A stretch of 62,260 bases of DNA, counting the filler, from Hausera hauseri (Eukaryota), in the NCBI GenBank assembly GCA_046269625.1. It is 9 parts of 9 records of this genome, joined end to end, with 100 filler letters (N's around TTAATTAATTAA, not from the genome) between each part and the next. Parts side by side here need not be neighbours in the genome. Positions count along the whole stretch, not along the records: positions 36,773 to 52,600 come from JBJURY010377701.1; 8 more parts are not named here. One strand, written 5' to 3'. Below are positions 7,501 to 62,260 of the stretch, piece after piece; positions within the stretch are counted from its first letter, which is position 1; each line of letters starts with the position of its first letter. Below the pieces are notes generated by a model. It did not search any database, had not been told where the DNA came from, and saw only the letters and a program-made list of their open reading frames with translations. Both the position numbers and the translations under genes were made by a program.

Positions 7501-8629
7501 TGGGGAGTGGGCAAATTTTATTTATTTCGTCGTTAGTATTTACTATCTCCGGTGTTTCCAAGTTTTCCAGAGTCTTTTCAGGTATGATGAAAATGTCTGA
7601 TGAAGGCGAATCATCTACGAAAGTGATAGTATAGGAGCTTCCTTTTTCTTCCAATTCCTTCTTAATGGGTGAACGAGAGCGAGTCTTAGACCTTCTCTTA
7701 AGTGATGGACATCTGCCTCCTTTCTTTGTTATTTTAAGGACTAAGGGCCCTATAAATTCACTTTCGACTTCGTATGTTGTCTCGTCAGGTTTGTATATTT
7801 CAGCTTCTATTTCTGCGTCTAAGTCTACATTTTGAGATGTTGATGGTTTCTCGGACTGCTCTATACCTTGCGGAACAGACTTCTTACGTGCCATATTCGT
7901 ACTGTTCGGTGCCAATGCCCATTCTTCTTTGGCTTGTGGTTCTCGTAATCCATGATAAACTTCCATTAGTAGTAATTTCTTTTCATATTCTTTCCTAGCG
8001 TTCATTACTTGAGGGTTTTTAGTTTCGCTTAGATTTCTTACAGATCTGCGTAAATCTTGCATTTCAATGATCAGACTTATATCACCCTGTTTACCATAGA
8101 TGGCTTCTAAGTAATTTTTAATCATACTTGTTTTGTTCGGTTCGGTAAATGTGACACTTCTAGGATTTGGACATGACCTAGCAACGTGTCCTTCTTTTCC
8201 ACATGTAAAGCAGATTAAATTCCCATTCCAACCGATCCTTTGTCGGCCATCTTCATTTACAGGCGATTTTGCCCTGTTTGTATTCTTATTCTGGCTCTGT
8301 AGCGTTTGTCTATTATCTCCGTCATATCTGTTATCCGCATATTTATTGTTAGATCGGTAACCACTTTGGTTCCTATCTGAATTGTAACTAGATTTATTAT
8401 ACGAGTTATTTCGGTTATTACTAAAATTTCTGTCATTCCTTTGATTTCTATTGTGAACGTTTTGATTTCAGTTATCAAAACCTCGGTTCCGGTTATTATC
8501 GTTAAATCGTCTGTTATCTTGATTATCGTTTCTATTCCGGTTATTGCGGTCATTATTCCTTTCATGTTTGTTACCTTGCTGAGCATATCTCTAATGCCAT
8601 TTCTAAATCTTGGACTAATTGTAATGTCC
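4541..8629 (-). pseudogene. Partial copy B of giant Gypsy element: Gag C-terminus with CCHC knuckle plus long extension with ubiquitin-like domain and AT-hook
   Basis: Reverse-strand CFTCGKEGHVARSC at ~8172-8213; peptides collinear with 38040-41750; YRFYFRGRILDD (Ubl) and KRPVGRPRK; many stops and frameshifts. Confidence 0.9.
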
Positions 8630-30200: not shown

Positions 30201-31224
30201 AATGCTACTTGATCCCACGCTAGCTGTAAAGGAATTGAGCAATGTGTTGAAAATAAACATAAGTGAAGAAAAGTTAAGGAAATTGATTCCAATCTTGACC
30301 AAACTATCCAGTGAAAACACCACTTACAGCGCTGCACCCAAGCTCTTAATAAGAGAATACGCCAAACTGTTGAAAAAAAACCAGAAGCGGAAATTAAAGT
30401 GAAAGTATCATCTGAAGGGATGGATGACGAGGCATTTGAATGCACTACCTACACCACAGTTGGAGATATAAAACAGCGGATAATGGATAAGGATAGTAGG
30501 AAAGGAGTTAATTATAGTCTGTATTTCAGAGGCAGGATATTAGACGAGCTAGAATCATTGACAGACGTAGGGATTATACCTCTCGAGGAAAATCGAATAA
30601 TAGCAATAATCATTAGTGAGCAAACTAAAGATGAAGCCATAAGAAAGGCACATACAGAGCATTACGTCGGAAGAATCATGGGGATTCAGGATGCCGCAAT
30701 GTACTTCGAATACTTACAGATTGATGAGGACAACCCGCAATACGATAAAAACTTAGTTCTCTTAAGTAAAACCTTACCACCGATGAAACCAAAGCGACCG
30801 GTCGGAAGACCAAGAAAAATGAAAGAAATCGACTATAACGCCGATCTGATTAGAGAATTATACCGGACATCAAGGCGATATATTATCCGAGAAAGAAAGA
30901 CTAATATATAATATAGCCCGGACAATGAAAACTTTGCGATTTAAATTATCTAAAAGCACTTTTCCTGACAAAACAATAATTGATAGAATTATGGTAGACA
31001 ATACAATGGAAAAATTAAGGAAAGTCTTAATATATTTAGCGGTAAGAACTAACCCTCTCCGCGAAAACGAATTTGACAAGACAATTGGGTTAGCTAGAAA
31101 AGCTGCAAGAATGGTACCTAAAGAGATAAAGTGGACGAAATTATTCGAAAAAGAGGAGGACGCAAAATGGACTAATAAGTTAGAGGACATGATACGAAAT
31201 ATCTCTCTGAACAAAGGAAACTAA
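27226..31224 (+). pseudogene. Partial copy F of giant Gypsy element: Gag end (CCHC) plus long extension with Ubl (30399-30620) and AT-hook (~30791-30817)
   Basis: CYSCGKEGHIARSC continues in frame into the extension; TVGDIKQRIMDKD...YSLYFRGRILDELESLTDVGI; KRPVGRPRK. Confidence 0.9.
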
Positions 31225-33180
31225 TCCAATTGGTTAATCAACTTGCTGACGATAATGATGCTAGTAAGGCAAATAGGAGTAGTCACTTTATACGATTGCG
31301 ACAATTTCAAGGTGGGTCAGAAATACTCCGTAATGGACTTAGAAACATGCGAAGATGCAAGACCTCATAAGCTCGAGACAACGGAAAAAAGGTATATATT
31401 ATATCAACAACGTGAATTAATCGCGATGGATGCGACGGAATGCATGATACGGAGATCTCGCCGCGTTTTTCATTGTGGTACTATGCACGGGCATTCTTCA
31501 ATAATCAAACCAACAACCCCATTAATCCCAATGAACGTGGACAGACAACACTGATTAGGAGCCCGCATGACCGGTAAAATGGTTTGGGACGGTATGGAGT
31601 TGGAAGCCCAAGAAGGGAAGATAATCAAAGCATACAAAGTGGCAGTTGGAAAATTGAACATGCACACCGGTTATTGTGTCGGAGTAGAATATGACACCGG
31701 AAAGGGAAAGGAAGAAGGAATAGTAGTCGTGGATTTTTACAAAACCGAGTTAAGATCCCTAAAAGCAATGTTTCATAGTGTTACCAAACTATTTACCGAA
31801 AATCAAAAATGTCACGTTCAAGACGGTGCTTGCATGTTCCGAATTTCAGTTGTTGTATGGAGCTCACCTTCCAAGAGAGATTTAATTTCATCAAAATCAA
31901 AGAGTTAAAGTTTAATGAGACAACTGGAAAACGTTATAGAAATAAGTTACACACAAATACCAGATCAAGGAAGACATAGTAGAACATCCCACACGAACGA
32001 TATTGATATCGGATGTACACGCATTAAAGGTTATTAGGAAGAATATGTTAACACGCTGCGATGTAGTTATGTATGCCACAAATTACGAAGTATTTTTCGT
32101 TGCAGAAATTGAAATCAACATGAAAATGTATGATTTAAAAACGCAAGATACAGGGATTGAAGATTACCTCAAAAATCGAGATGACTATTTCTATTACAAA
32201 GGACAGACCGGAATAGCAGAACTATACCACAAAATGATAACGCACGACTGTAGATTAAATATTGAAGTTATGCGAACCAAATTGGCCTTAATTTATGCCA
32301 ACCCAGAACTGGCATTACCAATTATAACAATAAAAGAAGGTGTCTTCAAACAAGTTACCGGAGAAGTCCTATTAACTTACAAATGCGAAAAAAGAGACGT
32401 GCCGATTAACGTGGAAGAAAAAAGATGCATGCAGGAATTACCAGTCATCTATGAGAATATGTCGAGACTAGCGATGCCACTCACCAGAGTATTACTGGAA
32501 AACTCGACCGAACCAAGAATATTCAAAAAATGCGAAACGAGCCTATGTGAACCCATGTTCCGACGCAGTAGAACCGACTGGATAAGTCTACCTAATGGAG
32601 GCGCTGCTGTAGTCCCTAGTAAGCTAACAGGGATCTAATCAAATGATTATTAGATTATTATTAATTATTATTAATGATTATTATTATTATTAATCTAATC
32701 AAAGGATTATTAGAGGATAAGTTCGAGGACACGGCCAATAAAGGAATTTATAGGCCAAAGGACACAGAAGCCTTTAGGCAATTCGTAGCCTTTCCGCGAC
32801 AGAGAACTTATGATCTGAATCGGGCCATGTCAATGGTCATGGATGACACCCGCTTCCAAGCGAAATGAGAATCGTTACTTGGTGCTAATCACTATCAAAG
32901 AGTAACTTCAGAAATACTGTATAAGATTTGGGGCAGGTTTCTAATCTTCGGACAAGCTGCATCTGGATTCCTAGCCATCTGCCTTTTAGTCCAGTTAATT
33001 AAAGCAGTAATCCAAGCCGTTATGAACGGATATGAAATATTCACATTAACAGGATTTTCCTGCAAAATATTAAATTCAGTTATCACACCATTTAGAAAAA
33101 TACTTAAGGCCTACGAAAAATATCGATGGACGAATGACGTAGAACGCCACGTCGGGTACTATAATCGCAAACGGCGACAG
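31225..33180 (+). pseudogene. env: Chuvirus-like (class III, gB-like) envelope glycoprotein, copy F
   Basis: Hydrophobic signal then VTLYDC; ECMIRRSRRVFHCGTMHGHSS; GEVLLTYKC; CMQELPV; GIYRPKD..FP; TM WGRFLIFGQ...NGYEIFTLTGFS. Confidence 0.8.
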
Positions 33181-35060
33181 AGAGAGAGACAGATGGAGAG
33201 AAAGAGGGAGACAGAGAGAGACAGAGAGAGAGACAGCGACACAGACAGAGAGAGACAGAGGCACAGAAAGAGAAACATAGAGAGACAGAGAGAGACAGAG
33301 ATAGAGATAGAGAGATTGACAGAGAAAGAGAGACAGAGAGAGACTGCGAGAGAGAGAAAGAGAGAGAAAAACAGAGATAGAAACAGCGAGACAGAGAGAA
33401 AGAGAGAGATAGACAGAGACAAAAAGACAGAAAGAGAAAGACAGAGAGAGACAGAGTGGGAGACACAGAGAGAAACAAAGAGAGAGACAGAGATAGAGGG
33501 AGACAGAGACAGATAGATAGAAAGAGAGAGGCAGAGAAAGAGAGACAGAATGAGAGACAGAGAGAGACGGTGAGAGGGACAGACCTAGACAGAGACAGAG
33601 AGACAGAGATAGAGAGAGACAGAGAAACAGACAGTGAGAGAGAAAGAGAAAAAGAGAAAGAGAGAGAAAGACATAGAGACACACAGAAAGAGCGAAAGAG
33701 AGAGAAACAGAGAGAAAGCCAGAGAGAGCGACAGAGGCAGAGGCAGAGAGAGAGACAGCGAGATACAGAGAGAGACCGAGAGAGACAACGAGGGAGACAG
33801 AAAGAGAGACAGAGAGGCAGAAAGAGAGGGACAGAGTGAGACAAAGACAGAGAGACAGAGATAGAAAAAGAGACAGAGACAGAGAAACATAGATAGACAG
33901 AGAGAATGAGACAGGGAGAGAGACAGAGAGAGGGAGAAAAAGAGAGAGACAGAGAGATATAGACATAGAAAGAGACAGAGGGGAGACAGAGCGAGAGACA
34001 GAGAGAGACAGAGAGAGAAATACATAGAGAGGCACACAGAGAGATAGGCACAGAAATAGCCAGAGTGCGACAGAGAGAGACAGATAGATACAGGGAGAGA
34101 GAGAAAAACATAGACAGAGAAAGAGACATAGAGAGAGAGAGAGACAAAGAAAGAGACAGATAGAGAGACAGAGAAATACAGTAAAAGACAGTAAGAGACA
34201 GAGATAAAGGAGAGACAGAGAGAGACAGAGGGAGACAGAGAGACAGAGACAGAGAGAGACAGAGAATGAGACAGAGATAGAGACAAAGAGAGGGAGAAAC
34301 AATGAGAGAATGATAGAGAGACAGAGAGTTATAGACATAAGGAGAGAGACAGAGAGAGAAATACATAGACAGAGATTGAAAGAGAGACAGAGAGATAGCG
34401 AGAGAGAGCGACAAAGAGAGAGACAGAGAGGGAGCGAGAAAGACAGAGAGAGACATAGAGAGAGAGAGAGACAGCGAAAGAAACAGAAAGTTATAGACCT
34501 AAAGAGNNNNNNNNNNNNNNNNNNNNNNNNNNNNNNNNNNNNNNNNNNNNNNNNNNNNNNNNNNNNNNNNNNNNNNNNNNNNNNNNNNNNNNNNNNNNNN
34601 NNNNNNNNNNNNNNNNNNNNNNNNNNNNNNNNNNNNNNNNNNNNNNNNNNNNNNNNNNNNACAGTAGGAAAGACAGAGAGAGAGACAGGGAGAGAGACAG
34701 GGAGAGAGAGACAGAGAAAGAGCGAGATAAACAGAGAGAGACATAGAGACAGAGAGACAGAGGTTGAGACAGAGAGAGAGAATCAGAGAGAAAGACAGAG
34801 AGAGACACAGAGAGAGACAAAGAGAGAGAGACTGAGATATAGACAGAGAGAGACAGAGCTAGAGGGACAGAGAGAAACAGAGAGAGACTGAAAGACAGAC
34901 AGAGAGAGAGACAGACAGAGGGACAGAAAGAGTTAGACAGAGAGAGACAGAGAGATAAAAAGACAGAGAGATAGAGACAGCGAGAGACAGAGAGAGACAG
35001 AGAGATAGAAACAGAGGAAGAGACAGAGAGAGATACCGAAAGAGACAGAGAGGGAGAGAC
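33177..35060. repeat. Degenerate (AG)n/(AGAC)n microsatellite, ~1.9 kb including N gap 34507-34660
   Basis: Continuous GAGA/GACA arrays. Confidence 0.97.
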
Positions 35061-36772: not shown

Positions 36773-37160
36773 CCTTTTATTTTGTGTATCGATTTCGTGT
36801 AACCAGTTGATTATTAATTCGATACCGCGGTGTATCCAGTGGAATACTTAATTGTTTTTGTTGTAAAAATACTTGTTATTTAAAACTTCTTATATAGTTT
36901 GCCATTGCCCCATAAGGGTGATTAGACTACACTAAGGTCTAAAATCCTACTGTAAAATCACAGTTAAGACGAGAATATTGTTAAACGTTTTTCACAGGAC
37001 CGCAAGATAGTACCATAATTACTGAACTAAACTTATTGAAATAAGGCACAATCTGTGTATGCGATAGCGATAGACCTTACTTGTATTAAGGTACTCAAAT
37101 CTCGGTTGTAACTATTGTTATATAGTGGGAGTTGTATAAGGGCCACCTTAATATATAACA
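36773..37160 (+). repeat. 5' LTR (3' part; start cut by contig edge)
   Basis: Ends TATAACA before the PBS; alignable to ~52255-52535. Confidence 0.88.
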
Positions 37161-37162
37161 TT

Positions 37163-37180
37163 TGGCGACCCTAGCAGGAC
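37163..37180 (+). promoter_or_regulatory. Primer-binding site, probably tRNA-Arg
   Basis: TGGCGACCCTAGCAGGAC 2 nt after the LTR; complement GTCCTGCTAGGGTCGCCA resembles the T-stem/acceptor/G-CCA end of animal tRNA-Arg. Confidence 0.85.
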
Positions 37181-37319
37181 AGATTAGTACCTCGCTAGAC
37201 TTTACTTCAGCTGAGAGTTAATTAACTACATACCGGCAATCAGCGCCACTTGCACCGAGTAATTGAATACAATTTGAGATTTAAAATTTCGGGTTATAAG
37301 TTTGGCAGGATTTAAAAAC

Positions 37320-38135
37320 ATGATTTATCAGAGAACAAATATTGATAAGTTCAAAGTGAACCTTGATTTAAACGATAAGGAAAACTTGCCTATACGCCAG
37401 AGGCGTAGAAATACATATAGGGATAATAAAAATTTGGATAAACATTCATTTTCTAAAACTAGTGTAAATTCAGTTAATACAGATTAACCGCCGTTGAGCG
37501 AACCGATAAGTTTAAAACTCCTCTTGTGAAAACTAAAGTTAATAAAGTAAATTTTGAGACTAATTGCGTAAATAATATGGCAGAAAATAACCCAACAGTA
37601 GCACAAAAGCTAGACATCTTTACTTTTGATTCTCTGAATCTTCCGGCATATAATGATGATCCGGACGGATTAAATGAATTTTTGAGAACTTATAAATTGC
37701 ACACAGAAGGTGTCAGTCTTAATCCTGAAGTAATTATTAAACGTTTGTCGACATATTTGAAGAATTTAGCGGCTGATGCTTACAGCGAGCTCACTAATGA
37801 TGAAAAGAATTCTTGGTCCATCCTGATAGGAGCATTGAACCGAAAATTATTGCCGAAAGTAACACCGCAACAGAAACTTATGCCTTTTCAGAATAGGATG
37901 CCAACCAGTAACCCAGTTTGCATTTGCATTGAAGAAACCCTCTAATAGTTATGTAAGTACATTGAGAACAGTCAACGTGGCAATAATATAAGGTTCGCCG
38001 AACCAGTACAATAGAAGCGCAAATAGGTCTAAGTCACCTGTGAATGAAGACGGTCGACAGAGAGGCGACGGGAATGGAAATTTAGTTTGCTTTACCTGCG
38101 GTAAAGAAGGACACATTGCCAGGTCATGTCCGAAT
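37320..38135 (+). pseudogene. gag: gag (capsid and CCHC), with ~0.5-kb internal deletion relative to copy I
   Basis: LPAYNDDPDGLNEFLRTY, YLKNLAADAY, SWSILIGAL, CFTCGKEGHIARSC. Confidence 0.88.
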
Positions 38136-41100
38136 CCGCATAGCGTCTCCTTCACCGAACCTAGTAAGACTAGTATGATTAAAGTCAATGAGAACTTAGA
38201 AGCGAAATATGGTGTTCGTGGTGATACAGGTACTATTATCGACATACAGGATTTGCTGAAATTTTTAGATGCTCAAGCGGAAACTACTAATCCACAAATT
38301 CTGACGATCAGAAGAGAGTATGGAGATAAGCTAAGACTGTTAGAAGTTCATCATGGTTTTTCAGAACCAGAAACTGAATATACTATGCGATCGCACCTAA
38401 GAGAATTGAGGTGACACGGAAAAAGAGTGTTCCCATGAGTAATAAAATAGCAGATACACCAGGAACTTCGACAGAAGTCGACTTAGGTGCAAAACCTGAG
38501 TTCACAATCAAAAAAGTAGATAAGACTACTAAAGTAGAAATAGCCGAAAAAGAATTCATGGAGCCATTGATACTTAAAATTATGAAAAATAGAGGCCTCG
38601 GCCCCTCTCTGAAAACGAAACGTAGGAGACGTTTAAGTTCGTAGGTACCTGGAGAAAAAATAGAAGAAACGAAAAATACGAACATTGATGCACACAACGA
38701 CGTAGAGCCTATCTTAAATACGCCAGTAATTGGCCAATTTACACTCATCGAGGCAAAAGAATCGGTAGAGTCAATTATGGAAATTAACAAAATTTGCCAA
38801 CTTTCCACTAATGAGGAAAAAACGGGAAACATTGATGAATCTGATCCAAGAAAATGGAAAGTCATATGTTCATGGAAAAACACCTATGAATTAAAGAAAA
38901 TGAGAATTAGATGTCACGGTCCAGAAACATTACGGTGTAATTTGGACAGACTTAAGTAGATTAGCGAACAAGTAGATATATCCGGTAAAGAGCAACAATT
39001 TGCTGAGAGGTTATATAAAAGTTTAAAATTATGTAGCAAAGGAAAGTTAGATGAAGCAATCGACTTAGGACAACTTAAAGAAGTACCATCTGAAACGTTG
39101 TCAAAATGAAAGCGTGAATTAGAAACATGGATTAAAAGTGGAGTCGAATTTTCGGAAGGATGGAGCAAGAATGAAGATAGTGTAAGATAGATAAAGCTCA
39201 GACGCTACTATCTACCTTAGAAGTAAATCCAAAACTGAATAGAGTAGTCCGTAATTTAGAGCGTACAATGGATGAAATTCGCTATGCAATAATTAATCGG
39301 CTTAGAGAAAAACCGGTTAACCATCGAAGTAACGTTGATTTACAGATATTGTGTATAGACCCAGTAGATATTCCTCCCTTAATGGCGATAAAAATCGCCT
39401 TCGCTATACCCAAACAATATACAAACCTAGAGGATCGTATCAAAATAAAAAATGAAAAGCGAACCCAAATTTTTAGTTTGAGAAACCGAATTGTTTCTAA
39501 ATAACGAGGAAACCAAAAACGTAATAAAAGCTTGTATCGTAGAATTCGACGAATATGAGGATGAGTTCAATTATGTCAGCCAGATCATAAATTTTATAAA
39601 GGGTATGGATGACGAATTAAAGGATGCATACAAGATGCCAGACAAATCTATATTGGCAAAGCCAATAATCGCCAATCAATTGTCGGAATGGTCCTATTTA
39701 ATAATGAGACTAAGCACATTAGTAGAAAATCGTAAGAAAGAATTTCCAGAAAGCAAACCATCGGTAAAAAGGCAATTAAAGGAAAATGCACGTAATTTGG
39801 ATACAATACAAGCAGAAATAGACATCCGGACGCAATTCGAAACATTACGACGACTAAACTTTATGAAGAATCAAGAAACGAAGATACTGGAAGAGATTTA
39901 TAAAATGATCGTCGAAACAAACTTTATAGAAAAGCGAAATATGATTTGTGATTAATACCCAAGGTTAAGAAACGTCTGACTAAAAGGAGTCCAACATTTA
40001 ACAGATAAACCTGTCGACGAAATTTCAATCCAAGATATCGAAACCTTAGATATTTGTCCGGAACATAGAGCCGCTTTAGAGGAAGCATTAAAATTCTTGA
40101 ATAAATCACAAGAATGGATGGCCGGAACTGATCAGTATTGCCATACCGGGTTGACAAAAATAAGAAACAACCAACATCTTAGTTTTGAAGAATCTAAGTT
40201 CGTAAAGAAATTGCTCAATGCAATAGATCTCGACTAAAATTATAAATGAGCTGTATGAGTTAGCCTTCCTGTTAGTAAAAATGGCAGAGATTAATTATGA
40301 GAAGATGAGGCAATTAATTCCCAAATTACGACAAGTCGAAGAAACGTGCATTAGAACCAAACAAAAGGCAACGAGGTTAGACGAATTAGTAAGAGCTCGA
40401 AATCTACCTGAACAAATATGCTTTTACCGAATCAGAAATCAAAAATAAGCGAGAATTTGTACAAAGATGGCAAAGAGATGTAATTATTGAACTAACTGAT
40501 TATCACTAAAAAGGATTCATCAATTCTAATGAATTAGGCGAACTACTGAAAATGATTAAGTATGTCTGAGGGAACGGAATAGAATTCCGGATCACACATA
40601 TAAAAGAAATACAGCCAAGGATAAAAGAGATTCAAGAGAAAATACAAAAGGCAAATACAACACTAGTAAACTATGGACTTCCAGACGTTGGAAATGAACC
40701 GGAATGAAATGCGTACTTAGATGCGTTAACGACCGAAAATCCTGTGACTCCAGTACAGCTAAATAAAATAGAAACGTGTCCGCAGAATAGAAGATTCGAT
40801 GTGGAGATGTGCCTGGATTCAGCGCTAACTGAAAAAGATTTAATTAAACTAAATAACGTAAACATTACTGAGAGTAAGTTAAGACAACTTATTCCGACCT
40901 TGACTAAATTATCCAGTGGGAGCACAGTTTATAGCGCGGTGCCGAAACTTTTGATAAGGAAATACGATAAAATCTTGAAAGCTAAACCCGAGGTAGTGAT
41001 GAAAGTAATGGTACCATCCGAGTGGATGGATGAAAAAGAATGTGAGCTAACTACTTATTCCTATGTAAGGGACGTAACAGAATGGTTATTAAACAATGGC

Positions 41101-41937
41101 GGAGCAAACGAGTTAAACTATAGATTCTATTTTAGAAGTAAAATATTAGACGATTTAGAACAGTTAATAGACGTCGGGATTATCCCAGACAAAACAAATC
41201 AAATAGTGGTGATAGTAACCAATGAACAGACTAAAGAAGTCAACCGTAAGGCTAAGACAGAACAATGAGTACGGCAAATCATAGGAGTCCGAGACGCTGC
41301 AATGTATTTCGAGCATTTACAAACGGATGAGGACAAGGAACAATAAGACAAGAATTTAGTGCCACTGAGTGAAATAATAATCAATGTCCCTAGGCCGAAG
41401 CGTACAGTCGATAGGCCTAAGAAGACGCGACAAAAAGTTCGCTATAACGGAGAATTGATTAGAGAATTAAGACAAATGTCGATACCTACCTTCAACACAA
41501 ACAACAAAGAATTAACTGAATTAATGAAGAATTTAATACGTATTGTAAATTATTCAAGCCTCCGAGGCGACACATTAGATGATAAAGAAAAAGTGATATT
41601 TGATGCAGCTAGGATGATGAGTTCACGTTTCAAATTATCAAAAAGCAACCTGACCAATGAATCGGTAATCGAAAAGATCATGGTGGAAAACACCATTGAA
41701 GAATTAAGAAAGGTATTACTAGACTTAGCTATGAAAATAAATCCCAGTCAAGAAAACGAAATTAATAGAGCTACAAGCTTGGCACAAAGAGCTGCTAGGA
41801 ATTTACCCTGTAAAGTAAATTGGTCAAAATTATTCCATAAAAAACGCAAACGGCCCGGAAATAGCAATAGGCTTGAAGATATGCTACGTAATTTAACAAC
41901 GACAGATAATAGTAACCGAAAAAACGAATCAAAATGA
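38136..41937 (+). pseudogene. Long Gag extension: SR-rich, helical/coiled-coil-like, ubiquitin-like domain (~41000-41220), degenerate AT-hook (~41398-41424)
   Basis: In frame with CCHC; collinear in four copies. Confidence 0.8.
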
Positions 41938-44357
41938 CTAATCAGCTTATTCACCTTAATGATCCTAATAAAGCATATAGGCGCTGTTACCGTCCATGAC
42001 TGAGATAAGTTTAAATTAGTACAGAAATGTTCTCTAATGGATCTGCAAGTGTGCGAAGATGCCAGACCGCACAAGTTAGAAACGAGAGAGAAAAGTTATT
42101 TTCTGTACTGACAACAAGAATTGATATTATTAGATGGAATGGAATGTATGCTGAGACGATCTCGTAGCATTTTTCACTGTGGGCCAATGCACGGACATAC
42201 TTCAATAATCAAACCAACAACTCTTCTGATCCCAATGAATTTGGAACGCCAGCATTGTAAGCTGGCCAAGGAAACCGGAAGATTAAAATGGGATAGGATG
42301 AAACTAGAGAATCAACCAAAAAAGATAATTAGGGCATACAAAGTAGTGGTCGGACGGTTAGACATGCATAACGGACATTGTAGTGGAGCGGAATACGACA
42401 CCGGAAAAGGATTAGAAGCAAATGTATTGGTCGTAGATTTCTATGAATCGGAGATGCAAGTACAGAAAGTAATGTTCCATAGTGTCACCAAACTATATAC
42501 CGAGAATCAAAAATGCCATTTACAAGACGGAACCTGTGCCTTCAGAAGTTCTGTTATAATGTGGAAACCTCCCTCTGGAAGAAACTGTAAATTTATCAAA
42601 ATTAAGGAATTGAAATTTAACAAAACTACCGGAAAACGATATGTAGATAAATCAGACACCAACTCAAGGACACGCGAGGATGTAGCAGAGCACCCTACAC
42701 CTACTATATTAATCTCTGACCAGCATGGGCTAAAATTCATCAAAAAAGAATGATTTCTCGTTGTGAAGTAGTGATGTTCGCCACCAATTATGAAACATTT
42801 TTCGTTGCAGAAACGAAAATAAATGAGAAAACGTACAAGCTAGAAAAGCATGACATTCGGATTGAGGACTACCTGAAAAACCACGACGATTATTTCTATT
42901 ACAAAGGGCAAGTTGGAATAACCGAATTATATCATAAAATGATAACGAACGATTGTAAATCAGATATGGAAATCATGAGGACAAAACTGGCTCTTACACT
43001 AATCCCGAGTTGGCATCCACAATAATTCGTATGAAAGAGGGAATTTTCGGTCGAGTTACCTGTGAAGTCATATTAACTTACGAATGCGAGAAAAGGGATG
43101 TACCAAGCAACGTTAAAAAAACGTTGCATACAGGAGCTTCCTGTTATTTACCAGAATACTCCAAGGTTAGCCACGCCAATCACTAGAGTGCTATTAGAAA
43201 ATGCAACTAAACCGACAATCCTTAAAGATTGTAAGGAAAGTTTAGGAGAACCCATGTAAAGGCGTAGTGAAACGGATTGGGTTAGTTTGCCAAATGGAGG
43301 TATTACTGCCGCTCAAAATAAACTAACAAACAAATCTTGCAAAAGGAATTACCAACGACAAATTTCAAGACACTTCATCAAAAGGCATATATAGGCCTAA
43401 GGAAATCGAAGCTTTCAGGCAATTTATCGCTTTCCCGCGACAACGGACATACAAATTAAATCGAGCCATGGCCTCCGTAGTAGATGATACTCGATATCAA
43501 GCAAAATTGGAATCATTAATCGACGTAAATCATTATCATGGAGTAACCACAGAAATCCTCTACAAAATTTGGGGAAGATTCCTAATTTTTGGACAAGTTG
43601 CATCTGGATTTTTAACAACATATTTCCTAATACAGATGATTAAGGTATTCATCCTAGCAGTGATAAATGGGTATGAAATATTTACGTTGACCGGATTTTC
43701 ATGTAAAATACTGACTGCAATTATAACGCCCTTTGGAAAGTTATTGAAAGCATATGAAGAAAATAAATGGAAATCGGACGTAAAACGCCACGCCGGGTAC
43801 CACAACCGTAAACGAAAAAGAAGATCTATGCTCTTATACAAGCGGAGGATCACAAAACCTAATACACGAAGGAATAATTCAGATGATGACAAGCCTAAGG
43901 AAGAAGTACTTTCAAAAATAGACAGGCACAAGACGTATTCCGTCATTAAAGCACTATTGTCTATGCTACCCCCTACTGCTCCAGTCTACGAAGACTGTGA
44001 CAAACGATCAATGAGCTCGTATCAGATAGAAATCTATAAGACAATTAGTTTAGAAGACCCCTACGAAGGAAGAAAAGTTATCGAGTCCTACGAAAAATGT
44101 GTTATCGACAGCCCATGGATGACCCCAGAATATTGTATTCCCCGAGAGAACCTCGGAATATAGAGACTAGATCACCTGTCTAAGATAATTCAAGGTTAAG
44201 AACCTTCCGGAATATAGAGTCACACACGAACAATCGAAAACCATTAATTAATACTCATGAAATAAAAGAATTAAATATCGAAAACAATGAATTATATCCT
44301 AACGAAGAATTAAGACAATTATCGGAAAACAGTATTCTCCCCAGAAATCCGAATTAA
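41938..44357 (+). pseudogene. env: Chuvirus-like envelope glycoprotein with TM and long cytoplasmic tail, copy G
   Basis: LISLFTLMILIKHIGA-VTVHD; ECMLRRSRSIFHCGPMHGHTS; IQELPV; TM at ~43570-43730 followed by NRKRKRR. Confidence 0.8.
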
Positions 44358-47300
44358 CGGGCATAAAATATCAGCAACTAAACGCCAAAAAGTTGCATCA
44401 AACTGTTTTGGAACAGTAATAGAAGGAAGACCCTTCGCCAAAATCATTATTGAAAAATAGGAAGTTTATGCATTAATCGATACAGGATTTGAGATGTCTT
44501 ACATCAAAAATGATTTAATACCTCAAACGCTAAGAGGACAATTATACCCACCATCTACAAAAGACCCAAGCAATACAAGAGTTTTTGGCCAAATGTCGAA
44601 ACCGATGTTCAAATGGAACCCAGAAGTTCAAATAGTTGGACAATTTTTCCGTCACGAATTTGCAGTTATAGAACAATTAACTGACGACGTGATTTTAGGG
44701 TGTGATCTACTAAAAAGACTATCGAATATAGCAATTGACTTACAAACGGGAAAATTAATACAAATTAAACCAAATAGAGGCGTAAAAAACACTAAGGATA
44801 GAAAATTTGGAGAAGTATGGATACCAGTAAATGAAAATATTCCACCGAGAACGGAGATAATAATTTACGCTCAGGTTCAACAGGATGACGATAAACCGGT
44901 ATATATCAAACCAAAGGAGATATTAAATCTGAATATAATACTTAGTAACATACAGACAAGAGTACACTCCGGTTGTGTGCCGATCAGGATAGCAAATAAT
45001 GCACCGACCCCCGTGAAGCTTCATGCCTATACAACTTTAGGGGATACATATAGGGTGTTTTCTATAACTATTGAAAAAAACCTTACAAGTATGCTGAATT
45101 CCCACCTCATGCTAAAACTAAGTTTCCCCCCCCCAATCTTATTGTCGATTCTATGACAATAATTATGTCGCTAAGTCGATTATTGCTAAAGACGACGAAG
45201 ACGTTGGTAGGGCAAAGGCATTAAAATTAACTATTCCGCTTAAGAAAAAGCCTGGCTCGAATGAAGAAATAGATTTCGAAGATCAAAAAATTCTGAAATG
45301 GTATCTCCGACCACATTCATTAAGACCCGAGATAACAAAAGAAGTGGAACGGATGCTTAAGATCGATATAATTAGGCCAAGTTATGGATCGTGGTATTCA
45401 CCAATCCTCATGGTTAAGAAGAAATGGACTATAAAACATCGATTCTGTATTGACTACAGAGCATTAAATAATCTTATGATAAAAGATTCTTTTCCACTGC
45501 TATTAGTAAAAGAGGCTATAGATAGGCTCTCAGGAGCAAAGTGGTTTACCACTCTGGACTTACAATCCGGGTATTGGCAAGTAGAAATTGAGGACGAAGA
45601 CCGATATAAAATAGGATTCAAGACACAAAATGGTGTTTATAAATTCAACGTCATGCTGTTTGGTTTTACTACCGGGCCGGCCATATTTACAAGGATGATG
45701 AACAAAATGTTATTGGGGTTAGATCATGCTTTTGCATACTCAGATGATGTAATGATAGCGTCCAGAACGGAGAGGGAACACCTGAAGGATATTGAACACA
45801 CGCTGATGCGACTAGAACAGGCCGGATTGAAATTAAATCCGAAATGTAAATGGGCTCAGAACAAAGTATCCTACCTTGGCCATATAGTTGGAAAAGGAGG
45901 ATCAAAACCAGATAAATCGTTATTGAACAAAATATCAGATTGCATGGAACCACAAAACCAGAAAGAGTTAAGGCATTGGCTAGGACTCTGCAGATATTAT
46001 GCCACTTATGTGCCTAGGAAAGGAATTAAATGGAAATGGACAGACAGAAAGCTTTCGACGAAAAGAAGATATTAACAAGAGAATCGGTTTTACGATACTC
46101 AAACTTTAACTTACCCTTTATAATCAAGACAGTTGCCGGTAAAACAGGCATTGAATACGAATTAGCACAAAAAAGAGAAGATGACAAATTAGAACACCCA
46201 ATTGCTTATGGAGGACGTTCCTTAAAGAAGGTCGAGAAAAACTATTCTGTCACCGAATTAGAAACTTTAGTCGTAAAAGAAGTGCTTCGACATTTCAACA
46301 TTTATGTGTATGGGGAGAAAATCATAATTGTTACTGATCATAAAGCCGTGACTACCCTAAAAGGACGAGCGAGTAATCCAACATGCAGACGTAATAGATG
46401 GATCGAAGAAATCTCTAGATATAATATCAAATTTCAGTATAAGCCAGAAAATAAACATGTTGACGCCGATGCACTATCAAAATTAAAGACCAAAACAAGT
46501 GCAGTCACTGTAATGAAGAAGTCAGCTTGAAGAAATAATAGATCGCCAACGCACCTTAACGATGGATAAAGCGATTAAAGTCTCAGCCGAACAAAGGAAG
46601 GATAGAATTATCCAGAACATTAAAGAATTTGATAAGAGGGACATAATACCAAAAGGACGACAATTAAAGAAACAACTATGTAGGCATGGATATAAATACT
46701 GCGTTCTGAACAACAAGAGCCTAAGAAACCTTCTATATTATGAACGAAAAGGAAGAAAACTAATAGGTATTCCAAAAAACTTACAAAATGAAGTTTTGAT
46801 GTCGGAATACAATTCATATTTGGCAGGACATATGTTCTGGAGGAAAACATTAGAATGAGTATTAAACAAATACTTTTGGCCCAACATTTATATTGATGTA
46901 AAGAATGGGGTAAATGCTTGTGAAGTATGTGCGACAAAGCAAAAGAACGAAAAAGTATATGGAGGAACTGAAACCAATCGACACACCGGACAGACCCATG
47001 CAGGCCATGCCAATGGATATCGACTAACTCATTTTGTTGAGTTGATAGCGCTAATTGATCAAAAAGCAGAAACCTTGGCCGAAGCCGTAGTTAGAAGAAT
47101 CATTTGCCTATATGGACCGCCAGACCAAATATCGACAGATCGAGGAAGAAATTTTACCACTGAACTATTCGAGAAGATTAGCAAAATATTTGAAATCGAA
47201 AGGTTAACCACAACTGCGTATCATCGTCAGTGCAATGGAATGGTTAAACGAATGAATGCAAATGTCATATGCATACTATCAACCGTAGTAGCCAAGGACC

Positions 47301-47800
47301 AAAATGATTAGTACGAATTTTTAGAAGGAACTCAATTTGCAATTAATACCGCTGCGCATCCAGCAACATGATTTACGCCAATTTTCATGATGTATGGACG
47401 TGAAGCTGTGTTACCCGCAGACTTAGGAATGACACCATACACCATCAATCCCGAAAATTTAGAACAAAACTTTGCAGAAGTATTGCAAACGTGACTACAA
47501 AAATGTTGGGAAATCGCCAAGAAGTTGCCCCAAGAATAACAAGAACAGTTTAAAAAGCAATATGATAAGGAAGCGAAACCGCATGATCTAGAACAGGGAA
47601 ATTGGGTCTATCTCCAATATTCAGCAGCCAAAAAAGGCACGTCATTAAAACTGACTCGTACAGGCAGAGGACCGTACGACGTTACCAGGGTTACTCCAAC
47701 CACAGTGCATATTAACAAAAACAGGAAAGAAGTCGTATCGGTGCAGAGTCGTTAAGACAGAGATACGGCCCAATAAATATTACAATTTACGTCAACGCGA
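44341..47800 (+). pseudogene. pol: pol: aspartic protease, RT, RNase H, integrase (Ty3/Gypsy order)
   Basis: ALIDTG (44479), ILGCD; WYSPI, FCIDYRALN, LDLQSGYWQV, YSDD; YSVTELE, TDHK, DADALS; AGH, CEVC, TDRGRNF, CNGMVKRMN, GPY, YNLRQR. Confidence 0.95.
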
Positions 47801-49236
47801 GATAAAAACTTACTCAATAATTACTAGACCGATATCATACGTTCAGACAGTTTTAGCACTATCATTAATTGATTCTTATATCCCAAGAGCACAAACTCAA
47901 TGGTGGGATGATGAATCTACGCTCGGAGACGTATATGGAATACGGAAAAGCGGACATAAGGCGGAAAACACCCTAGCGAAGAAACCAACAGCCGAAGAGA
48001 TCCAAAAACAAGAAGACAATACATTGTTACAATCAATGACGGTTCATTACTTCTCGCCAGACGCCGTGTGTATTGGACTTAAAACTTGGAGACCATATCA
48101 CGACTTTGGAAGATTTCAAATTGTTCTATACGATGTAGCAACAAAAGAGCGGAAAACTGTGATTTTAAACCCGGAGATTATGCCCAGTGCTGCGACAGAT
48201 TTTAAACATACCTACATCCTTACGTATCGCATGTATTTGCCGGACTCAGCAGAAGTTTATATCGAAGTAAACCCACAACTTCAGTTGGTTATTCCCCCTT
48301 GGTCCGGGCGATTCGGAGGGAAGCCCAGAGAAATGCTGCAATCCACTGACCCAGAGATAAGGTTATTAGACGAAAATATAAAAAGGATCTCAATAAATAA
48401 GGAAAAACATTGCATCCAAGTAGATACCCGAATAGGATTAAACCTTAGTCAAGAAATTAGTATTGTCTTCGAAGCAGTAAACGGACAAACTCCGAAAATA
48501 GAATACTCATCCGTCCGTGCAGGCGTACAACATCCATGTTGTAAACTGCCGGTAAACCGGGAATTCAAAATAAAATTTGACTTATATGAAGTGCGACCTA
48601 ACAAACCAAGTATACAGTTACGAACTTATTATCCCGAGAATAGAATATGGAAAATTTCAATAGAAATGACAACTACAAGACCGACCACTCGGATTAGTGC
48701 CCTTGCAAGAATCGTTACATCGGGCAGTACGCCTAAAAGAGAATTAGAAAGTATCCCTATCCAATATTTGGCACATCGATTCAAAATTGTGTTCTATGTG
48801 GAAGAGAAACTAAATTACGATATACACAAGCTGCCAAAAAACGTATAATAACCAAATTGTATCCTTACTTAAAAACACTCACCAGACAGAATGCAAATTG
48901 TTAAAAATACAATCCGATTACATAGTTCTGATATATGGAAAGAATAAACAAAACCAAACAATTATGTTGCGCACACTAGACAAAATTCGCGCACAATCGC
49001 ATATATACGAAAACATAGACGATGAAATCACAACCCCAATCACCACACAGGTACCAATGGGATTAACCGCTTTACCAATCACATCGATTGTCGTACTGTC
49101 AACGTTTGTTCTCACTACATTTATTACGATTTTTCGGTTAGTTGACATAAATTGTCATTCTAAGCGTCCTAAAATTACGGAACGGGAACTAAGAAAATTG
49201 GAAAACCCTATTGATCCGTATGATAAAATAACCTGA
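47800..49236 (+). pseudogene. Type I membrane protein with fibronectin-III-like repeats, in frame with the integrase tail
   Basis: Hydrophobic VQTVLALSLI after YNLRQR; beta-rich repeats with KLPVNREFKIKF and LKIQSDYIVLIYG; TM ITSIVVLSTFVLTTFITIF; tail ENPIDPY. Confidence 0.55.
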
Positions 49237-49320
49237 CAATTACAGAGCGGGTTATTCTGTCATCAAATGAAGAATTGGTTTTATTTTAAAACCGTTCTCT
49301 ATTGTAAGAGTAATCCGTAT

Positions 49321-49353
49321 TGTTTATTTTTCAGAACTGAGATCCACAAAATG
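49321..49353 (+). promoter_or_regulatory. Putative splice acceptor followed by ATG of the 3' ORF
   Basis: TGTTTATTTTTCAG (AG at 49333-49334) in an otherwise A-rich strand, then CACAAAATG at 49351. Confidence 0.5.
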
Positions 49354-51590
49354 TCCGAACGACGGAGGATCGACGAACGGGAAACAATAAACATTTCCGC
49401 ATGCCAACGTAGTATCGTATAATTTCTACAAGATTGCGCTACCATACTTATCATGAATTCTAATTCCGTCTATCGAGAGACCCACAACGAACTACACGGG
49501 AAAGCAGCCGTGAAATATGATCAGGTCCACACTATACCGAATATTTTAAGGGAACTACAGAAAAAGCCAGAGTTGTCTACCTTTATGCCATGAGAGAAGA
49601 CCAAAACGCTAGGACTTCTCCCCCAGACAGTTAGTAAACTACGAATTTGGCCGAGACCTTTATATCCATCTAGCCGATGGCGAAATTTATTACCGGATCC
49701 AAGACCAAGAGTGGAACACGAGAATTGAAAGACAGTGCAAGTTCAGTACTCTTAAATTACGAAGCGAAGATTTGCAGGATAAGGAATTAGAATTTCGAGT
49801 CACCGCTCTCCCCGTTAAGATGATGATTGAGGTGATCAATGATGAACAAGACCATGTCTCCTTACCGCACTTAAGATTTCGGCATAGACCGTTAGAATCA
49901 GAATTGGAAAAATCCTTATACTCCTATAGACTGGTATCGAATGCTAGAAACGTAAGAATTATCGCCATAAGTTGTGGAGAAGGAAGCGAAGCAGAGAAAA
50001 TCCCAATAGAAATTTCAGTCAAAGACAAATGGGACAGAATCTTATCACACAATTCTTAGTCCCAGGAAACGTGTCAGAGAAACGTTTTACGATCAGACAA
50101 AGATTCGTAAAGAAAGCCTAAAGGATGGAAGGGATATCAAGGTTGTACAGAGTTAGCCCATTGTCTATATGGGTACATCCTTGTTGGATACCGTGTGGAA
50201 AAAATTATATCCTTATTAGAAATTCCTTATTCAAAGCTCGAGGGGATAAGAGAACTTAACACACACCTGTGATCGCCGAACAGAAAAAGAAATTGTTACG
50301 GGAAATAGACTATCCAATGCCGAAAGTTATGGATGCTTACTTTAAGCTAATGGTGGAAGCCACAAATAACAGTCGTGTTAAGGTCAGTAAGCTATTGACA
50401 GAAGGTCAACGTACCCAACACCTCCGATATTTATGTAGGATTGTCATGGGAAAACGAATGGGATCCCCGGAATCCCGAGCACAACTTAGTCAGCTCCGCA
50501 AATCCAGATAGAATTAATGGAAAGTACTGGAAACAATACCAACCATATAAAATTAGTAAAATTACGGTACCTGGAACCAGTGAAAACCAACTACCCATTA
50601 CTAGTCAGGAGACTTCCGAATAACTGCCTAAAAAAGGGACCGACAGTATGACTTTCAAAGTTCCCCAAATTCCAAAGAATAAACAAAAGGTCGATTCACC
50701 GATCCAAAATACCTAAAAGAAGACTTCATCGTATGACCTTATATTTAAAAGAGCGCACAAACCAACTAAACCAGCGAGACAGAAAAGACTACCGAGATAA
50801 CAGATGGGACTAAAGAGTCACTGCCAGCAGAGAATCGACTAACGACCGAGGAAGAACCAAAAAAAGCAATAATCAGAAAACAAAAACCCCCAAAAGAACC
50901 CAAACGGTTTACGGAGGTAAACGTTCTTAGGAATAAACACCTCCCGGGAAATCAACATTTCGCAACAACAGAGAATCTACCCAGGATGCTAATCACAACC
51001 AAACATTAGTCATGGAAAAATCAAAGAAGCAGTATTTTACATCAGTCACCCAAAAGAGAGAAATATATGAAAATACTTACATATGGGAAAATTCCAAATG
51101 AGGAAAATACGTTGCACCGATTTTTTCATCAAAGAGGAATAGAAGACTGACAGTGCCAGTATACAAACAGATAAAACTCCTACTGAAAAAACAATATCAA
51201 AAGTACCAGTTAGCCAATAAAGTTCCCGATTTAGACCGTGAAATGATGGCAGATTGAACACTGGTAACCGTAAGCTGTGACCCAAGAAGGAGCTGTGTGG
51301 ATCCCAAGCAGAAGAGAATTCACGGATATCTATATCAAAATGAGGAAGGATTAGTTTTCGAGCAGATTTAACTTAAGATAAGGGTAGACCTGGACAACGA
51401 AAAGTAGGAAAGAAAAGAAAACGAATGCCCTATCTGTGAAGCTAATCTTCAACAAGGATTTGTCATCCTAGACAATAGAGATTGCCGACACAAATACTGC
51501 CGATAGTGTCTAGAAAAATGGACCCTTGAAAACGGTAAGACCACTTGCCCAGTATGTCCAACCGAAGCAGCTGACTTAAAGTGCTATTAA
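49351..51590 (+). pseudogene. 3' accessory ORF with C-terminal RING-HC finger (~51426-51558)
   Basis: CPICEANLQQGFVILDNRDCRHKYCR*CLEKWTLENGKTTCPVC read manually; missing from the ORF track because of a stop. Confidence 0.7.
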
Positions 51591-51762
51591 AATGGAAGTT
51601 ATACGAGAGTGGTCCGTATAAGACCCCACTATGCCTATGGAATAGAAACCAATAATAATATGGATTCCGGAGCAAGCTTACAAAGAAGGATAAATCTATT
51701 GAGACAACAGGGAACTGGCGGCATCTCTTCTGACGCAATAGGCGCCTTCGAGGATGGGGTTC

Positions 51763-51774
51763 AGGGAGAAGAAA
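51763..51774 (+). promoter_or_regulatory. Polypurine tract
   Basis: AGGGAGAAGAAA immediately before TGTTATA. Confidence 0.85.
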
Positions 51775-52535
51775 TGTTATAACGACAGCGACAAATTAAT
51801 AAAAATCTACGGCTGGCACTCGTAAATAGATTACTGAAATTCGATGGCACTTGTAAATAGATTATTTGAAATTCAATATAGTACCTGCTGCTGTAGATAA
51901 TTTTTTAAACCAATAGAAATTGTGAATAACTCGAATGTAAACAATTATGGTGTAGGTTGATTAATATAAAATCATAAAGAAGAAATTACAATAGCACTTA
52001 AAGCAGAAAATTGAGAAATTAAAACCATTGATTGGCAAGGCATGGTCATATAAATATGGAAGAGAAAATCATATCAAGCAGAAGTTGAAGTTAAGCAAGA
52101 AGAAAAGAGAAATCGACGAGAACTAATATTATTGGACTCATCTTGACGCTGATTTATCGTTTACGTGATTGCTGACGTTTCGATTTACGTGATCATTGAC
52201 GTTGTATTCGGAAGAAGTAGTGGTAATTGTTATATCATTAAATATTGTATTGTTAAATTCCTTGATATAGTTTTCCATTGCCCCATAAGTGTAAATAGAC
52301 AACATTAAGATATCAAAATCGCACTGTAAAATCATATAGATAAGACAAGAACACCTTAAAATATCTGCACAGGACCGCAAGAGAGTACAAGAACTACTGA
52401 TTAAATTATTTATTATAAGGCACAATCTGTCTACTCGATTAGGGTAGGCATTACCTGTAGTACAGAAGAAATAATTTCAAGTGTAAATACTGTTATATAG
52501 TGGGAGACGAATAAGGGCCACCCCAATATATAACA
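51775..52535 (+). repeat. 3' LTR, 761 bp, TGTTATA...TATAACA
   Basis: 7-bp terminal inverted repeat; TATAAATA at 52049; ~31-bp tandem repeat at 51815-51877. Confidence 0.92.
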
Positions 52536-52537
52536 TT

Positions 52538-53594: not shown

Positions 53595-53674
53595 TGATTT
53601 GCGATGATAATAATAATAATAGTTAGTTGTTTTGTTTGTGTTATAAACAAAAATGATTCTGTACATAATATGTA

Positions 53675-61100: not shown

Positions 61101-62260
61101 CAAGTTGCAAATAGAAATAGACATCCGTACTCGGTTTGAAGCGCTAAGACAACTAAAATTTACGGAACAGGAACTAGAAGCATCGACGATGGAAGAAATC
61201 TACAAATTAATTAAAGAGACAAACTTTACGGAGAAACGGAGTATGATTTAGGATGTGAATTCAAAGTTAAGGATTGTCCGACTAGAAGGGATTCAATACT
61301 TAACTGGTAAACCAATCGACGAAATTTCTGCACAAGACATTGAAATTCTCTACATTTGTCCAGGATACCGAGATATGTTAACCGATGCAATAAGGTTTTT
61401 ACATAAACCTCAAGAATGGATGGCCCTGTGAGACCAGAATTTTCATACAAAATTGATAGAAATAGGAAACGACCCGCATTTTAGTTTTTAGGAACACAAA
61501 TTTGTAAAGAAATTGTCGGATGCGATGGACCCTGATTCAAAGGTTATAAATGAGATGTACGAGTTAGCTTATTTATTGGTAGAAATGGCAGAAATCAGTG
61601 ACGAGCAGATGAGGCAATTGATGCCCAAGATACAGAAGGTAGAAGAAACATGTATCAAAACGAAACAAAGAGCGACAAGGTTAGATGAGTTAATAAAAGA
61701 GCTCGCAGTCTATCGTAACAAGTATGCTTTTACCGAATCAGAGATTAAAAATAAACGAGAATTTGTACAAAGGTGGCAAAAAGATGTGATTCTTGAATTG
61801 ACAGATTATCACCAAAAAGGGCTGATTGAATCTAACGAATTCGGTGAATTATTGAAGATGATTCAGTATGCTTGCGGAAATGGAGTAGGCTTCCGAACTA
61901 CGAAAATGAAAGAAATACAGCCTAAATTAAGGGAAATTCGAGAAAACATTCAAAGGGCCGATATAGCCTTAGTGGAATATCGACCCCCGGATGTTGGGAA
62001 CGAACCCGAATGGGATGCATACTTCGACGAAATACTTGCCGAGAAACCCATGACTCCAGTACAGCTTAACGAAATAGAAGTATGTCCCAAGGACAGGAGA
62101 TTCAATGTGGAAATGATACTGGATTCAGCGCTAACTGAAAGGGATCTGATGAAATTAATTAACGTAAATATTACTGAGAATAGACTACGACAACTTATTC
62201 CAACTTTAACTAAATTATCTAGCGAAAACACGATTTATAGTACGGTGCCGAAACTTTTGA
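58126..62260 (+). pseudogene. gag: Partial copy I of giant Gypsy element: leader, full gag and most of the extension
   Basis: FQNRVQQKGESVTQFAFALKKLA (major-homology-like), N/R-rich linker, CFTCGKERHISRSC, collinear with 37290-40950. Confidence 0.92.

Follow-up and report, generated by a model that had tools for sequence, protein, structure and literature searches.

Introduction

The first element reported to carry its env in frame after gag and ahead of pol was Burro, in 2019 (PMC6431247). Burro/GYPSM1 are giant gypsy-like elements of planarians that exceed 30 kb, with an internal region of up to 25 kb. As described in the sections of that paper drawn on here, Burro holds two or three CCHC zinc knuckles, a Ubi/SUMO-like domain, a BCL2-like domain between this domain and env, an env with mononegavirus matches in frame before the protease, and a dUTPase-like domain between protease and reverse transcriptase (RT), along with MATH, BIR and ankyrin domains. 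Elements with the layout GAG-ENV-POL and a gB-type env are catalogued from Platyhelminthes, Bryozoa and Nematoda, with 9 flatworm and 10 bryozoan rows (Chary and Hayashi, PMC13524379); according to that work the layout is not monophyletic, and it equates the Chuviridae-like glycoprotein with the HSV/gB type. Env-bearing BEL/Pao elements with a chuvirus glycoprotein are also known (Dezordi et al., PMC7642597; described in PMC13524379).

Here we describe a locus of similar layout from Hausera hauseri in a window of 62,260 nt, the whole stretch of DNA analysed, along which all positions are counted. An earlier note on this DNA had proposed a virus-like Ty3/Gypsy lineage with an undescribed gag-X-env-pol-Y-Z plan, holding that errantiviruses always place env 3' of pol. 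The plan stands; that view of errantiviruses and the claim to a new layout are outdated in view of Burro and its in-frame env ahead of pol (PMC6431247). Burro, cited in the note for its size only, is a characterised family of just the kind that the note itself had named as decisive against novelty.

Structure and state of the element

The element lies on contig G (JBJURY010377701.1, positions 36773-52600), where all blocks share the + strand and follow one another as LTR, tRNA-Arg-type primer binding site (PBS), gag with its CCHC knuckle, a 3.8-kb extension from CCHC to env, env, protease, dUTPase-like domain, RT, RNase H, integrase, membrane ORF, RING and LTR. Every block that the earlier note had placed on this one contig is present, and its LTR-to-LTR span of ~15.8 kb is refined to 15,683 bp, counted from the outer ends of both LTRs. 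A Pfam run on the blocks matched CCHC, PF24664, RVP, RVT_1, RT_RNaseH, integrase and RING in order. The succession of protease, RT, RNase H and integrase, and TG...CA LTRs with a tRNA PBS, are Ty3/Gypsy (Metaviridae) traits.

Copy G is dead, each of its genes being broken: besides many frameshifts, the eight blocks counted have 13 in-frame stops among their 2,557 codons. Uninterrupted ORFs, a criterion of the PMC13524379 catalogue and no lineage trait, are absent in G, where stops and frameshifts occur throughout; the catalogue holds intact copies, whereas G is broken. G is a broken copy of a multi-copy virus-like Ty3/Gypsy retroelement. We hold with high confidence that this dead copy has an env of chuvirus/gB type placed after an extended gag and before pol, and that it likely worked like Burro, as an enveloped endogenous retrovirus-like element with one long polyprotein.

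Terminal repeats and the right end

The 5' LTR (36853..37160) spans 308 bp with TG...CA ends; its right end is sharp and its left end is placed by alignment with the 3' LTR. The latter (52228..52535) is likewise 308 bp long and has 7-bp inverted ends. A tRNA-Arg-type PBS follows the left LTR at 37163..37180; in the tRNA table of PMC13524379, as far as used here, 3' ends in GGTCGCCA are Arg in 4 tRNA-type rows. A second PBS with leader, identical to the first at 60 of 63 positions, runs from 52538 to the contig end at 52600. The purine-rich stretch at 52210..52227, directly before the 3' LTR, is a candidate degenerate polypurine tract. A cleaner run of purines occurs at 52097-52112, and no TG end adjoins it.

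Two other readings of the ends were dropped. The 45-bp TG...CA hairpins before each PBS (37116-37160 and 52491-52535) could be taken as mini-LTRs, but they lack a preceding purine tract and the similarity extends ~260 bp farther upstream. Membership in Troyka was discarded since, as described in the source used, Troyka ends in CG...CG and G in TG...CA.

The two LTRs are 74% identical (228/308 columns). With such LTRs and a second PBS after the right one, a tandem, recombinant or assembly join at the right end of G is likely, and the right LTR probably comes from a neighbouring or recombined subfamily. LTR divergence was therefore left out of dating, as the two may not be a pair. No target-site duplication of 4-6 bp is visible at G, the right LTR abutting the second PBS and then the contig end.

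We regard it as an even question whether contig G is a mosaic, in which the part from gag to integrase or to the membrane ORF (ORF Y) belongs to one subfamily and region Z, RING and the right LTR to another, the two having been brought together by recombination, by a tandem insertion or during assembly. The identity of the LTRs is close to the distance between subfamilies, and PBS and leader recur after the right LTR. Furthermore, similar stretches of 30-45 nt precede the two LTRs in an anchored test, whose score was reached by 7-8 of 2,000 shuffles, although an unanchored local test of the same similarity was not significant (313/2,000). Summed depth falls to 32-68 at 49.4-51.6 kb against 398-17,656 elsewhere, a weak hint, as contig depth cannot rank parts. 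On the other hand, the LTRs are equal in length, the order of parts is normal, and identical pieces from one sequencing run, the longest of 558 bp, cover region Z. A mosaic would fit the Burro-like reading of G; the one thing it bears on is whether the 15.7 kb are a single element.

The extended gag and the envelope gene

Gag (37320..38135, start codon uncertain, 37320 or 37577) is broken and ends in a single CCHC zinc knuckle (zf-CCHC at 38085-38135, E 2.6e-7 in Pfam); Retrotrans_gag was matched only in sister I and at E 0.044. The first part of the extension (38136..40980) is broken, charged and likely helical, and gave no significant Pfam family. It is followed by a ubiquitin-like domain (40984..41265), weak but consistent: Pfam ubiquitin reached E 0.001 in sister F, under the gathering score, and all 37 PDB matches at E<=1 were ubiquitin-family or ubiquitin-containing chains, with a best single-domain E of 0.08. 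A helical domain (41347..41934) occupies the slot of Burro's BCL2-like domain; its model is of low confidence (pLDDT 45), and fold searches with this model as a test for BCL2 returned no informative match (best Z 5.7).

Three sister contigs are collinear with G, including the first part of the extension. F (27427..33303, + strand) carries the zinc knuckle, extension, ubiquitin-like domain, env and the start of the linker, and then runs into a microsatellite; B (4547..8627, - strand) carries the end of gag with the extension; and I (58282..62260, + strand) carries gag and extension. G and its sisters B, F and I represent diverged subfamilies, 65-79% identical in nucleotides over blastn pieces, rather than almost identical copies. 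Scans of metagenome and viral contigs gave no true relative; four metagenome loci matched in the zinc knuckle only, one of them with a generic integrase in addition.

Against B and I, the dN/dS of G is 0.05-0.24 overall, 0.05-0.14 in gag and 0.14-0.15 in the extension, and synonymous sites are saturated against F. Env of F and G compared over 584 codons gives pS 0.84 and pN 0.17. Judged by these substitution patterns, extension and env are under purifying selection.

The env (41938..43815), also broken, is assigned to the chuvirus/gB-type (class III) fusion glycoproteins by PF24664. Three of its pieces matched PF24664 at E 2.5e-12, 1e-4 and 1.4e-21, and four pieces together take in positions 9-621 of the 653-position profile, in order, along ~41950-43815. 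Hydropathy places an internal signal peptide at ~41938-41995 and a membrane anchor at ~43606-43685. No env relative turned up among proteins of 252-2000 and 404-2000 residues; as Burro-sized polyproteins exceed this range, that counts for little. Between the env block and the protease, the tail of env and a linker (43816..44424) contain frame breaks.

Could this env be a chuvirus-derived endogenous viral element or a nested insertion, or the env-pol junction a misassembly? Sister F stops short of pol, the linker has frame breaks, and no single piece spans env to protease, which would speak for such a reading. However, extension, ubiquitin-like domain and env form a single frame of 786 codons with 8 stops, the stop closest to the env start falling in different codons in F and G, and env sits at the same place in two subfamilies whose synonymous sites are saturated. 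The gag-extension-env order seen earlier in copy F is likewise borne out: F follows G in order from the zinc knuckle until shortly after env, and does not reach env-pol. In the same sequencing run as that covering region Z, possibly the source of the window itself, the junction (43500-45000) is covered in 30/30 bins by 3,815 pieces, each covering part of it; 3,574 of these are less than 99% identical, and among the pieces listed, ones with 16-36 differences cross both the env tail and the linker-protease boundary. Diverged pieces thus tile the junction. Env was skipped in none of the 15 joints shown out of 58, and among the joints shown of 29 at the junction the longest skip was 253 bases, each joint occurring in a single contig. 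The env of G is not a nested insertion, and we consider the whole set of insertion and misassembly readings, which the earlier note had raised against itself, highly improbable.

The pol region and likeness to Burro

The aspartyl protease (44425..44721) matches RVP at E 3e-6. Between it and RT, a profile with the PF00692 region of P0008 as its seed identifies a dUTPase-like domain (44836..45042; E 6e-15, 41 bits, against 4.6 bits for the best of 500 shuffles), while direct dUTPase tests on G without the profile were blank or weak. We call the domain degenerate because its profile misses a true dUTPase piece in contig H. Such a domain is common in gypsy Pol, with 94 domain matches among the proteins fetched. 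RT and RNase H (45416..46422; RT 45416-45889, RNase H 46102-46422) are of Ty3/Gypsy type: Pfam gives RVT_1 at E 2.5e-29 and RT_RNaseH at E 2.7e-25, a PDB search with the RT gives 4ol8 at E 3e-42 and the Ty3-G polyprotein 7q5b at E 2e-41, with retroviral RTs far behind, and the named matches are 412/17.6/297/Ty3-type Pol. The integrase (46769..47810, Pfam match 46769-47224) has H2C2, core and a GPY-type tail, and is broken.

As far as PMC6431247 is used here, G and Burro are alike in the extended gag, the ubiquitin/SUMO-like domain before env (weak in G), env between extension and protease, the dUTPase-like domain between protease and RT, and accessory domains tied to ubiquitin. Burro's in-frame trait is found in part: extension and env of G share one frame, and the env-to-protease linker has frame breaks. 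They differ in size, G with its 15.7 kb and 308-bp LTRs being about half of Burro's more than 30 kb, in CCHC number (one against two or three), and in an FN3 membrane ORF after integrase, absent from Burro's list in that source. MATH, BIR and ankyrin were not found in G (20 stop-free pieces, the 40393-41934 block, and 49.2-51.6 kb in all three frames), short decayed pieces in which these domains or further CCHC knuckles could hide.

With the "ancient errantiviruses" of PMC13524379, G shares a Ty3/Gypsy pol and a gB/chuvirus-type env upstream. It also falls within their spacing (env-pol <2 kb, gag within 5 kb), with a gap of ~0.6 kb and a gag start 4.4-4.6 kb upstream. From gag to integrase G measures ~10.3 kb, compared with 14.5-18.0 kb in six Schmidtea rows, or ~8.5-12 kb if, as we read it, those include the 3-kb flanks of the Methods. 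The gag extension and post-integrase ORFs of G are undescribed in the sections of that paper used here. Env-bearing BEL/Pao elements, as described there, have the glycoprotein family in common with G; BEL-type pol is absent from G, which has gypsy-type RT, RT_RNaseH and Integrase_H2C2. LTR elements of bdelloid rotifers resemble G in a dUTPase between protease and RT and in extra ORFs after pol, some membrane-anchored, but they carry a paramyxovirus F-type env after pol, and the words RING and fibronectin are absent from the paper on them (PMC5408684).

The kinship of G with Burro and the published GAG-ENV-POL elements would be one of anatomy, and it is possible, if rather doubtful, that G reached gag-extension-env-pol independently of Burro, the common anatomy being convergent. 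The best RT matches among proteins of 556-2000 residues are generic gypsy Pol, 34-48% identical, with PF24664 in 0 of the 120 listed, and Burro's MATH, BIR and ankyrin are missing from the pieces scanned. Yet Burro-sized polyproteins lay outside that size range, and extended gag, ubiquitin-like domain, helical domain, env, protease and dUTPase-like domain match Burro slot by slot. Even an independent origin would leave the layout already known. Comparing published descriptions of anatomy, we file G as a new Burro-like family, apart from Burro itself.

A predicted surface protein and a model for entry

The product of ORF Y (47814..49233, frame break near 48820) is a type I membrane protein in which three FN3 domains are predicted; it has an anchor at ~49051-49150 and a short tail with a tyrosine motif at its end. 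The ORF Y homolog P0001, to which a model and fold searches assign the FN3 fold, is an unbroken natural sequence, 36% identical (E 4e-52) and known as a protein alone. Region Z (49237..51400) holds coding-like remains, for which neither a family nor a counterpart in the window's other contigs was found. A C3HC4 RING finger follows at 51420..51557 with one stop inside (zf-RING_2 E 2.2e-9, X at the stop); a putative pseudo-nuclease ahead of it has no Pfam or PDB support.

On the Burro-like reading of G, Gag would package the RNA, with tRNA-Arg as primer. The internal signal peptide would direct the ectodomain of env to the lumen of the ER, and with the env anchor the chain would come back to the cytosol, so that protease, RT and integrase lie there. 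The single polyprotein is a proposal, against which the frame breaks in the env-to-protease linker stand. With a class III fusogen, particles would be able to move from cell to cell, the ubiquitin-like domain and RING likely act on host ubiquitin pathways, and ORF Y, as a predicted FN3 surface protein, likely serves in attachment or as a receptor decoy.

We found no description of a fibronectin type III gene on a retroelement in the literature searched; Grohme et al. 2018, supplements and Repbase, which lie outside it, may annotate one. This gene looks to be the sole part of G without an apparent earlier description. ORF Y is a candidate attachment partner for the fusogen env. How gB-type errantiviruses enter without gD, gH and gL is stated as an open question in PMC13524379. 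As a long shot, Burro-like elements may have a two-part entry, with a gB-type fusogen in the polyprotein and a three-FN3 type I membrane protein, encoded after integrase, that would attach to the target cell or set off the fusogen, in the role of herpesvirus gD/gH-gL.

Together, G extends a known layout to a smaller, unnamed family. The main lead is ORF Y, whose conserved, predicted FN3 surface protein shares its element with a gB-type env, and two-part entry, if true, would put a name to the partner that gB-type errantiviruses have been missing.

Gene order and decay of the element

Pfam searches on the plus strand of contig G (36773-52600) reveal, from 5' to 3', a CCHC knuckle, PF24664, an aspartyl protease, RT, RNase H, integrase and a RING finger, an arrangement that, with the collinearity of sister copies, agrees with the gene order proposed in an earlier note. 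PF24664, the chuvirus-type fusion glycoprotein of Monjiviricetes, matches in three pieces covering profile positions 9-621 of 653, and hydropathy places a hydrophobic start of this env at 41938 and an anchor at ~43606-43685. Against solved structures the RT scored best with 4ol8 (E 3e-42) and the Ty3-G polyprotein (E 2e-41), retroviral RTs falling well behind, and the 120 listed of 514 database matches represent generic gypsy Pol, 34-48% identical. A degenerate dUTPase-like domain, also found in many gypsy Pol proteins, lies between protease and RT (E 6e-15 with a profile built on database Pol proteins; no score above 4.6 bits in 500 shuffles). The element is 15,683 bp long and this copy is dead, carrying 13 stops in 2,557 codons (eight blocks counted) as well as frameshifts.

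Evidence for env as part of the element

The sister copies B (4547-8627, minus strand), F (27427-33303, plus strand) and I (58282-62260, plus strand) are collinear with contig G across gag and its extension, F additionally across the entire env. They are diverged subfamilies: dS to contig G is 0.5-2.35 for B and I and saturated for F, and dN/dS, where measurable, is 0.05-0.24. Over 584 codons of env, F and contig G differ with pS 0.84 and pN 0.17. Contig G 40393-42750 is a single frame of 786 codons with 8 stops, in which the extension runs into env; F and contig G have the stop closest to the env start at different codons.

Junction coverage was assessed with contig pieces of one public run, possibly the source of the window itself and hence not independent support. 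This run contains 59% of sampled words of 41000-48000. The env-protease region (43500-45000) is covered by 3,815 pieces occupying 30 of 30 bins, only 241 of them at least 99% identical. Among the pieces listed, some with 16-36 differences traverse the tail of env and the boundary between linker and protease, and none of the 15 joints listed of 58 skips env. Since the sisters are collinear, extension and env share a frame, diverged pieces tile the junction and the listed joints keep env, a nested insertion or misassembly there, which the earlier note had held would overturn its reading, is unlikely. That much stands in favor of a genuine junction; on the other side, F stops before pol and none of the 3,815 pieces contains the full junction. 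In F, a GA-rich microsatellite of ~1.9 kb (33105-35000) begins in the env tail and conceals the downstream sequence.

LTRs and integrity of the unit

Each LTR measures 308 bp, has TG...CA ends and precedes a tRNA-Arg-type PBS. We give about even odds that contig G is a single repeat of a tandem array, the product of recombination or a join made by the assembler. The two LTRs are only 74% identical, against 95% for the downstream PBS and leader, and in an anchored test the likeness of the bases upstream of each LTR was reached by 7-8 of 2,000 shuffles, whereas a local test found no significant likeness (313 of 2,000). Far lower depth of run pieces over region Z, between ORF Y and the RING finger, and over the RING itself is a weak hint in the same direction as the anchored test. 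Such an origin touches only the pairing of Z, RING and LTR with the rest; the position of env is unaffected. Each LTR closes with 45 bp (37116-37160, 52491-52535) that start with TGTTATA, end with TATAACA, can form a hairpin and are better conserved than the remaining LTR.

Accessory domains

Contig G encodes a ubiquitin-like domain at 40984-41265 (Pfam E 0.001 in sister F, below cut-off). All 37 PDB matches at E<=1 are ubiquitin-type, polyubiquitin scores being inflated by repeats. The ~200 residues that follow are helical, and a structure model and fold searches gave no reliable match for their fold.

ORF Y, the post-integrase membrane-protein gene (47814-49233, plus strand), has 2 homologs, P0001 and P0002, among 1.84 billion representatives. 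P0001 is an unbroken protein of 479 residues that opens with a signal-like segment and has an anchor followed by a short tail. Its model, built from a four-row alignment, has a mean pLDDT of 58.7, rising to 70-82 across much of three beta domains, and matches fibronectin type III arrays: Foldseek returned fibronectin 10-12 at E 2e-10 among 371 matches at E<=0.001, and in VIA the third domain superposes on fibronectin type III with Z about 9 and rmsd 2.2-2.6 over 75-79 residues. The model does not fix domain orientation, which keeps whole-chain TM-scores low. Matches in a viral library were weaker, chiefly phage FN3 proteins. ORF Y (at 49222-49233), P0001 and P0002 all end in Y-x-x-I-T, which resembles a tyrosine-based sorting or signalling motif. 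Directly upstream of ORF Y and in its frame is an integrase-tail-like motif, which hints that ORF Y may formerly have been fused to pol. Pfam and PDB searches found no family for region Z (49.2-51.4 kb).

Other contigs of the window

The window comprises nine contigs; the artificial spacers between them consist of two 44-N runs flanking a fixed 12-mer, and adjoining contigs are not neighbours in the genome. Contig C (8730-16391) holds pieces of two host genes, alanyl-tRNA synthetase (9908-10360, PF01411, E 3e-21) and a Frizzled/Smoothened membrane region (10528-11337, E 4.5e-12), both just ahead of the remains of another gypsy pol (13.0-15.2 kb). Contig H (52701-58025) retains remains of a dUTPase (53277-53591, E 1.5e-9) and of endonuclease VII (56423-56770, minus strand, E 1.2e-5), a combination suggestive of a Polinton/Maverick-type element. 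An unbroken RING finger ORF in contig E (24758-25096, minus strand, E 5.5e-9) has no tblastx match to the contig G RING region. Ankyrin repeats, which Burro also has, occur in contig D (16654-17121, minus strand, E 2e-10); sequence comparison within the window found no link to the contig G family.

Comparison with described elements

The gag-X-env-pol plan, which the earlier note did not recognise from any description, is already in print: Chary and Hayashi (PMC13524379) describe nematode, bryozoan and flatworm elements of several clades, all with gB-type env and GAG-ENV-POL order, credit Sacco et al. 2022 for the nematode elements and, in supplementary table 1, list 9 elements from flatworms and 10 from bryozoans, one of them present in 215 copies. 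Rotifer elements with dUTPase and extra ORFs are described by Rodriguez et al. (PMC5408684). The contig G element has everything in the GAG-ENV-POL gB-type definition except intactness. In its anatomy it works like Burro, the planarian giant gypsy-like elements, but differs in size, knuckle number and MATH/BIR/ankyrin content. Because of these differences, and because the comparison is one of anatomy, we file it as a new Burro-like family.

Proposed life cycle

A single long transcript with tRNA-Arg as its primer would yield one polyprotein (the env-protease linker of contig G contains frame breaks). The class III fusogen would reach the membrane by means of an internal signal peptide and anchor, with Gag and Pol kept in the cytosol; Env-bearing particles would then bud and enter adjacent cells, probably germline or stem cells. 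The ubiquitin-like and RING domains may tune host ubiquitination, and the predicted FN3 protein of ORF Y may serve in attachment or as a decoy. This putative FN3 membrane gene is the part of the element worth following.
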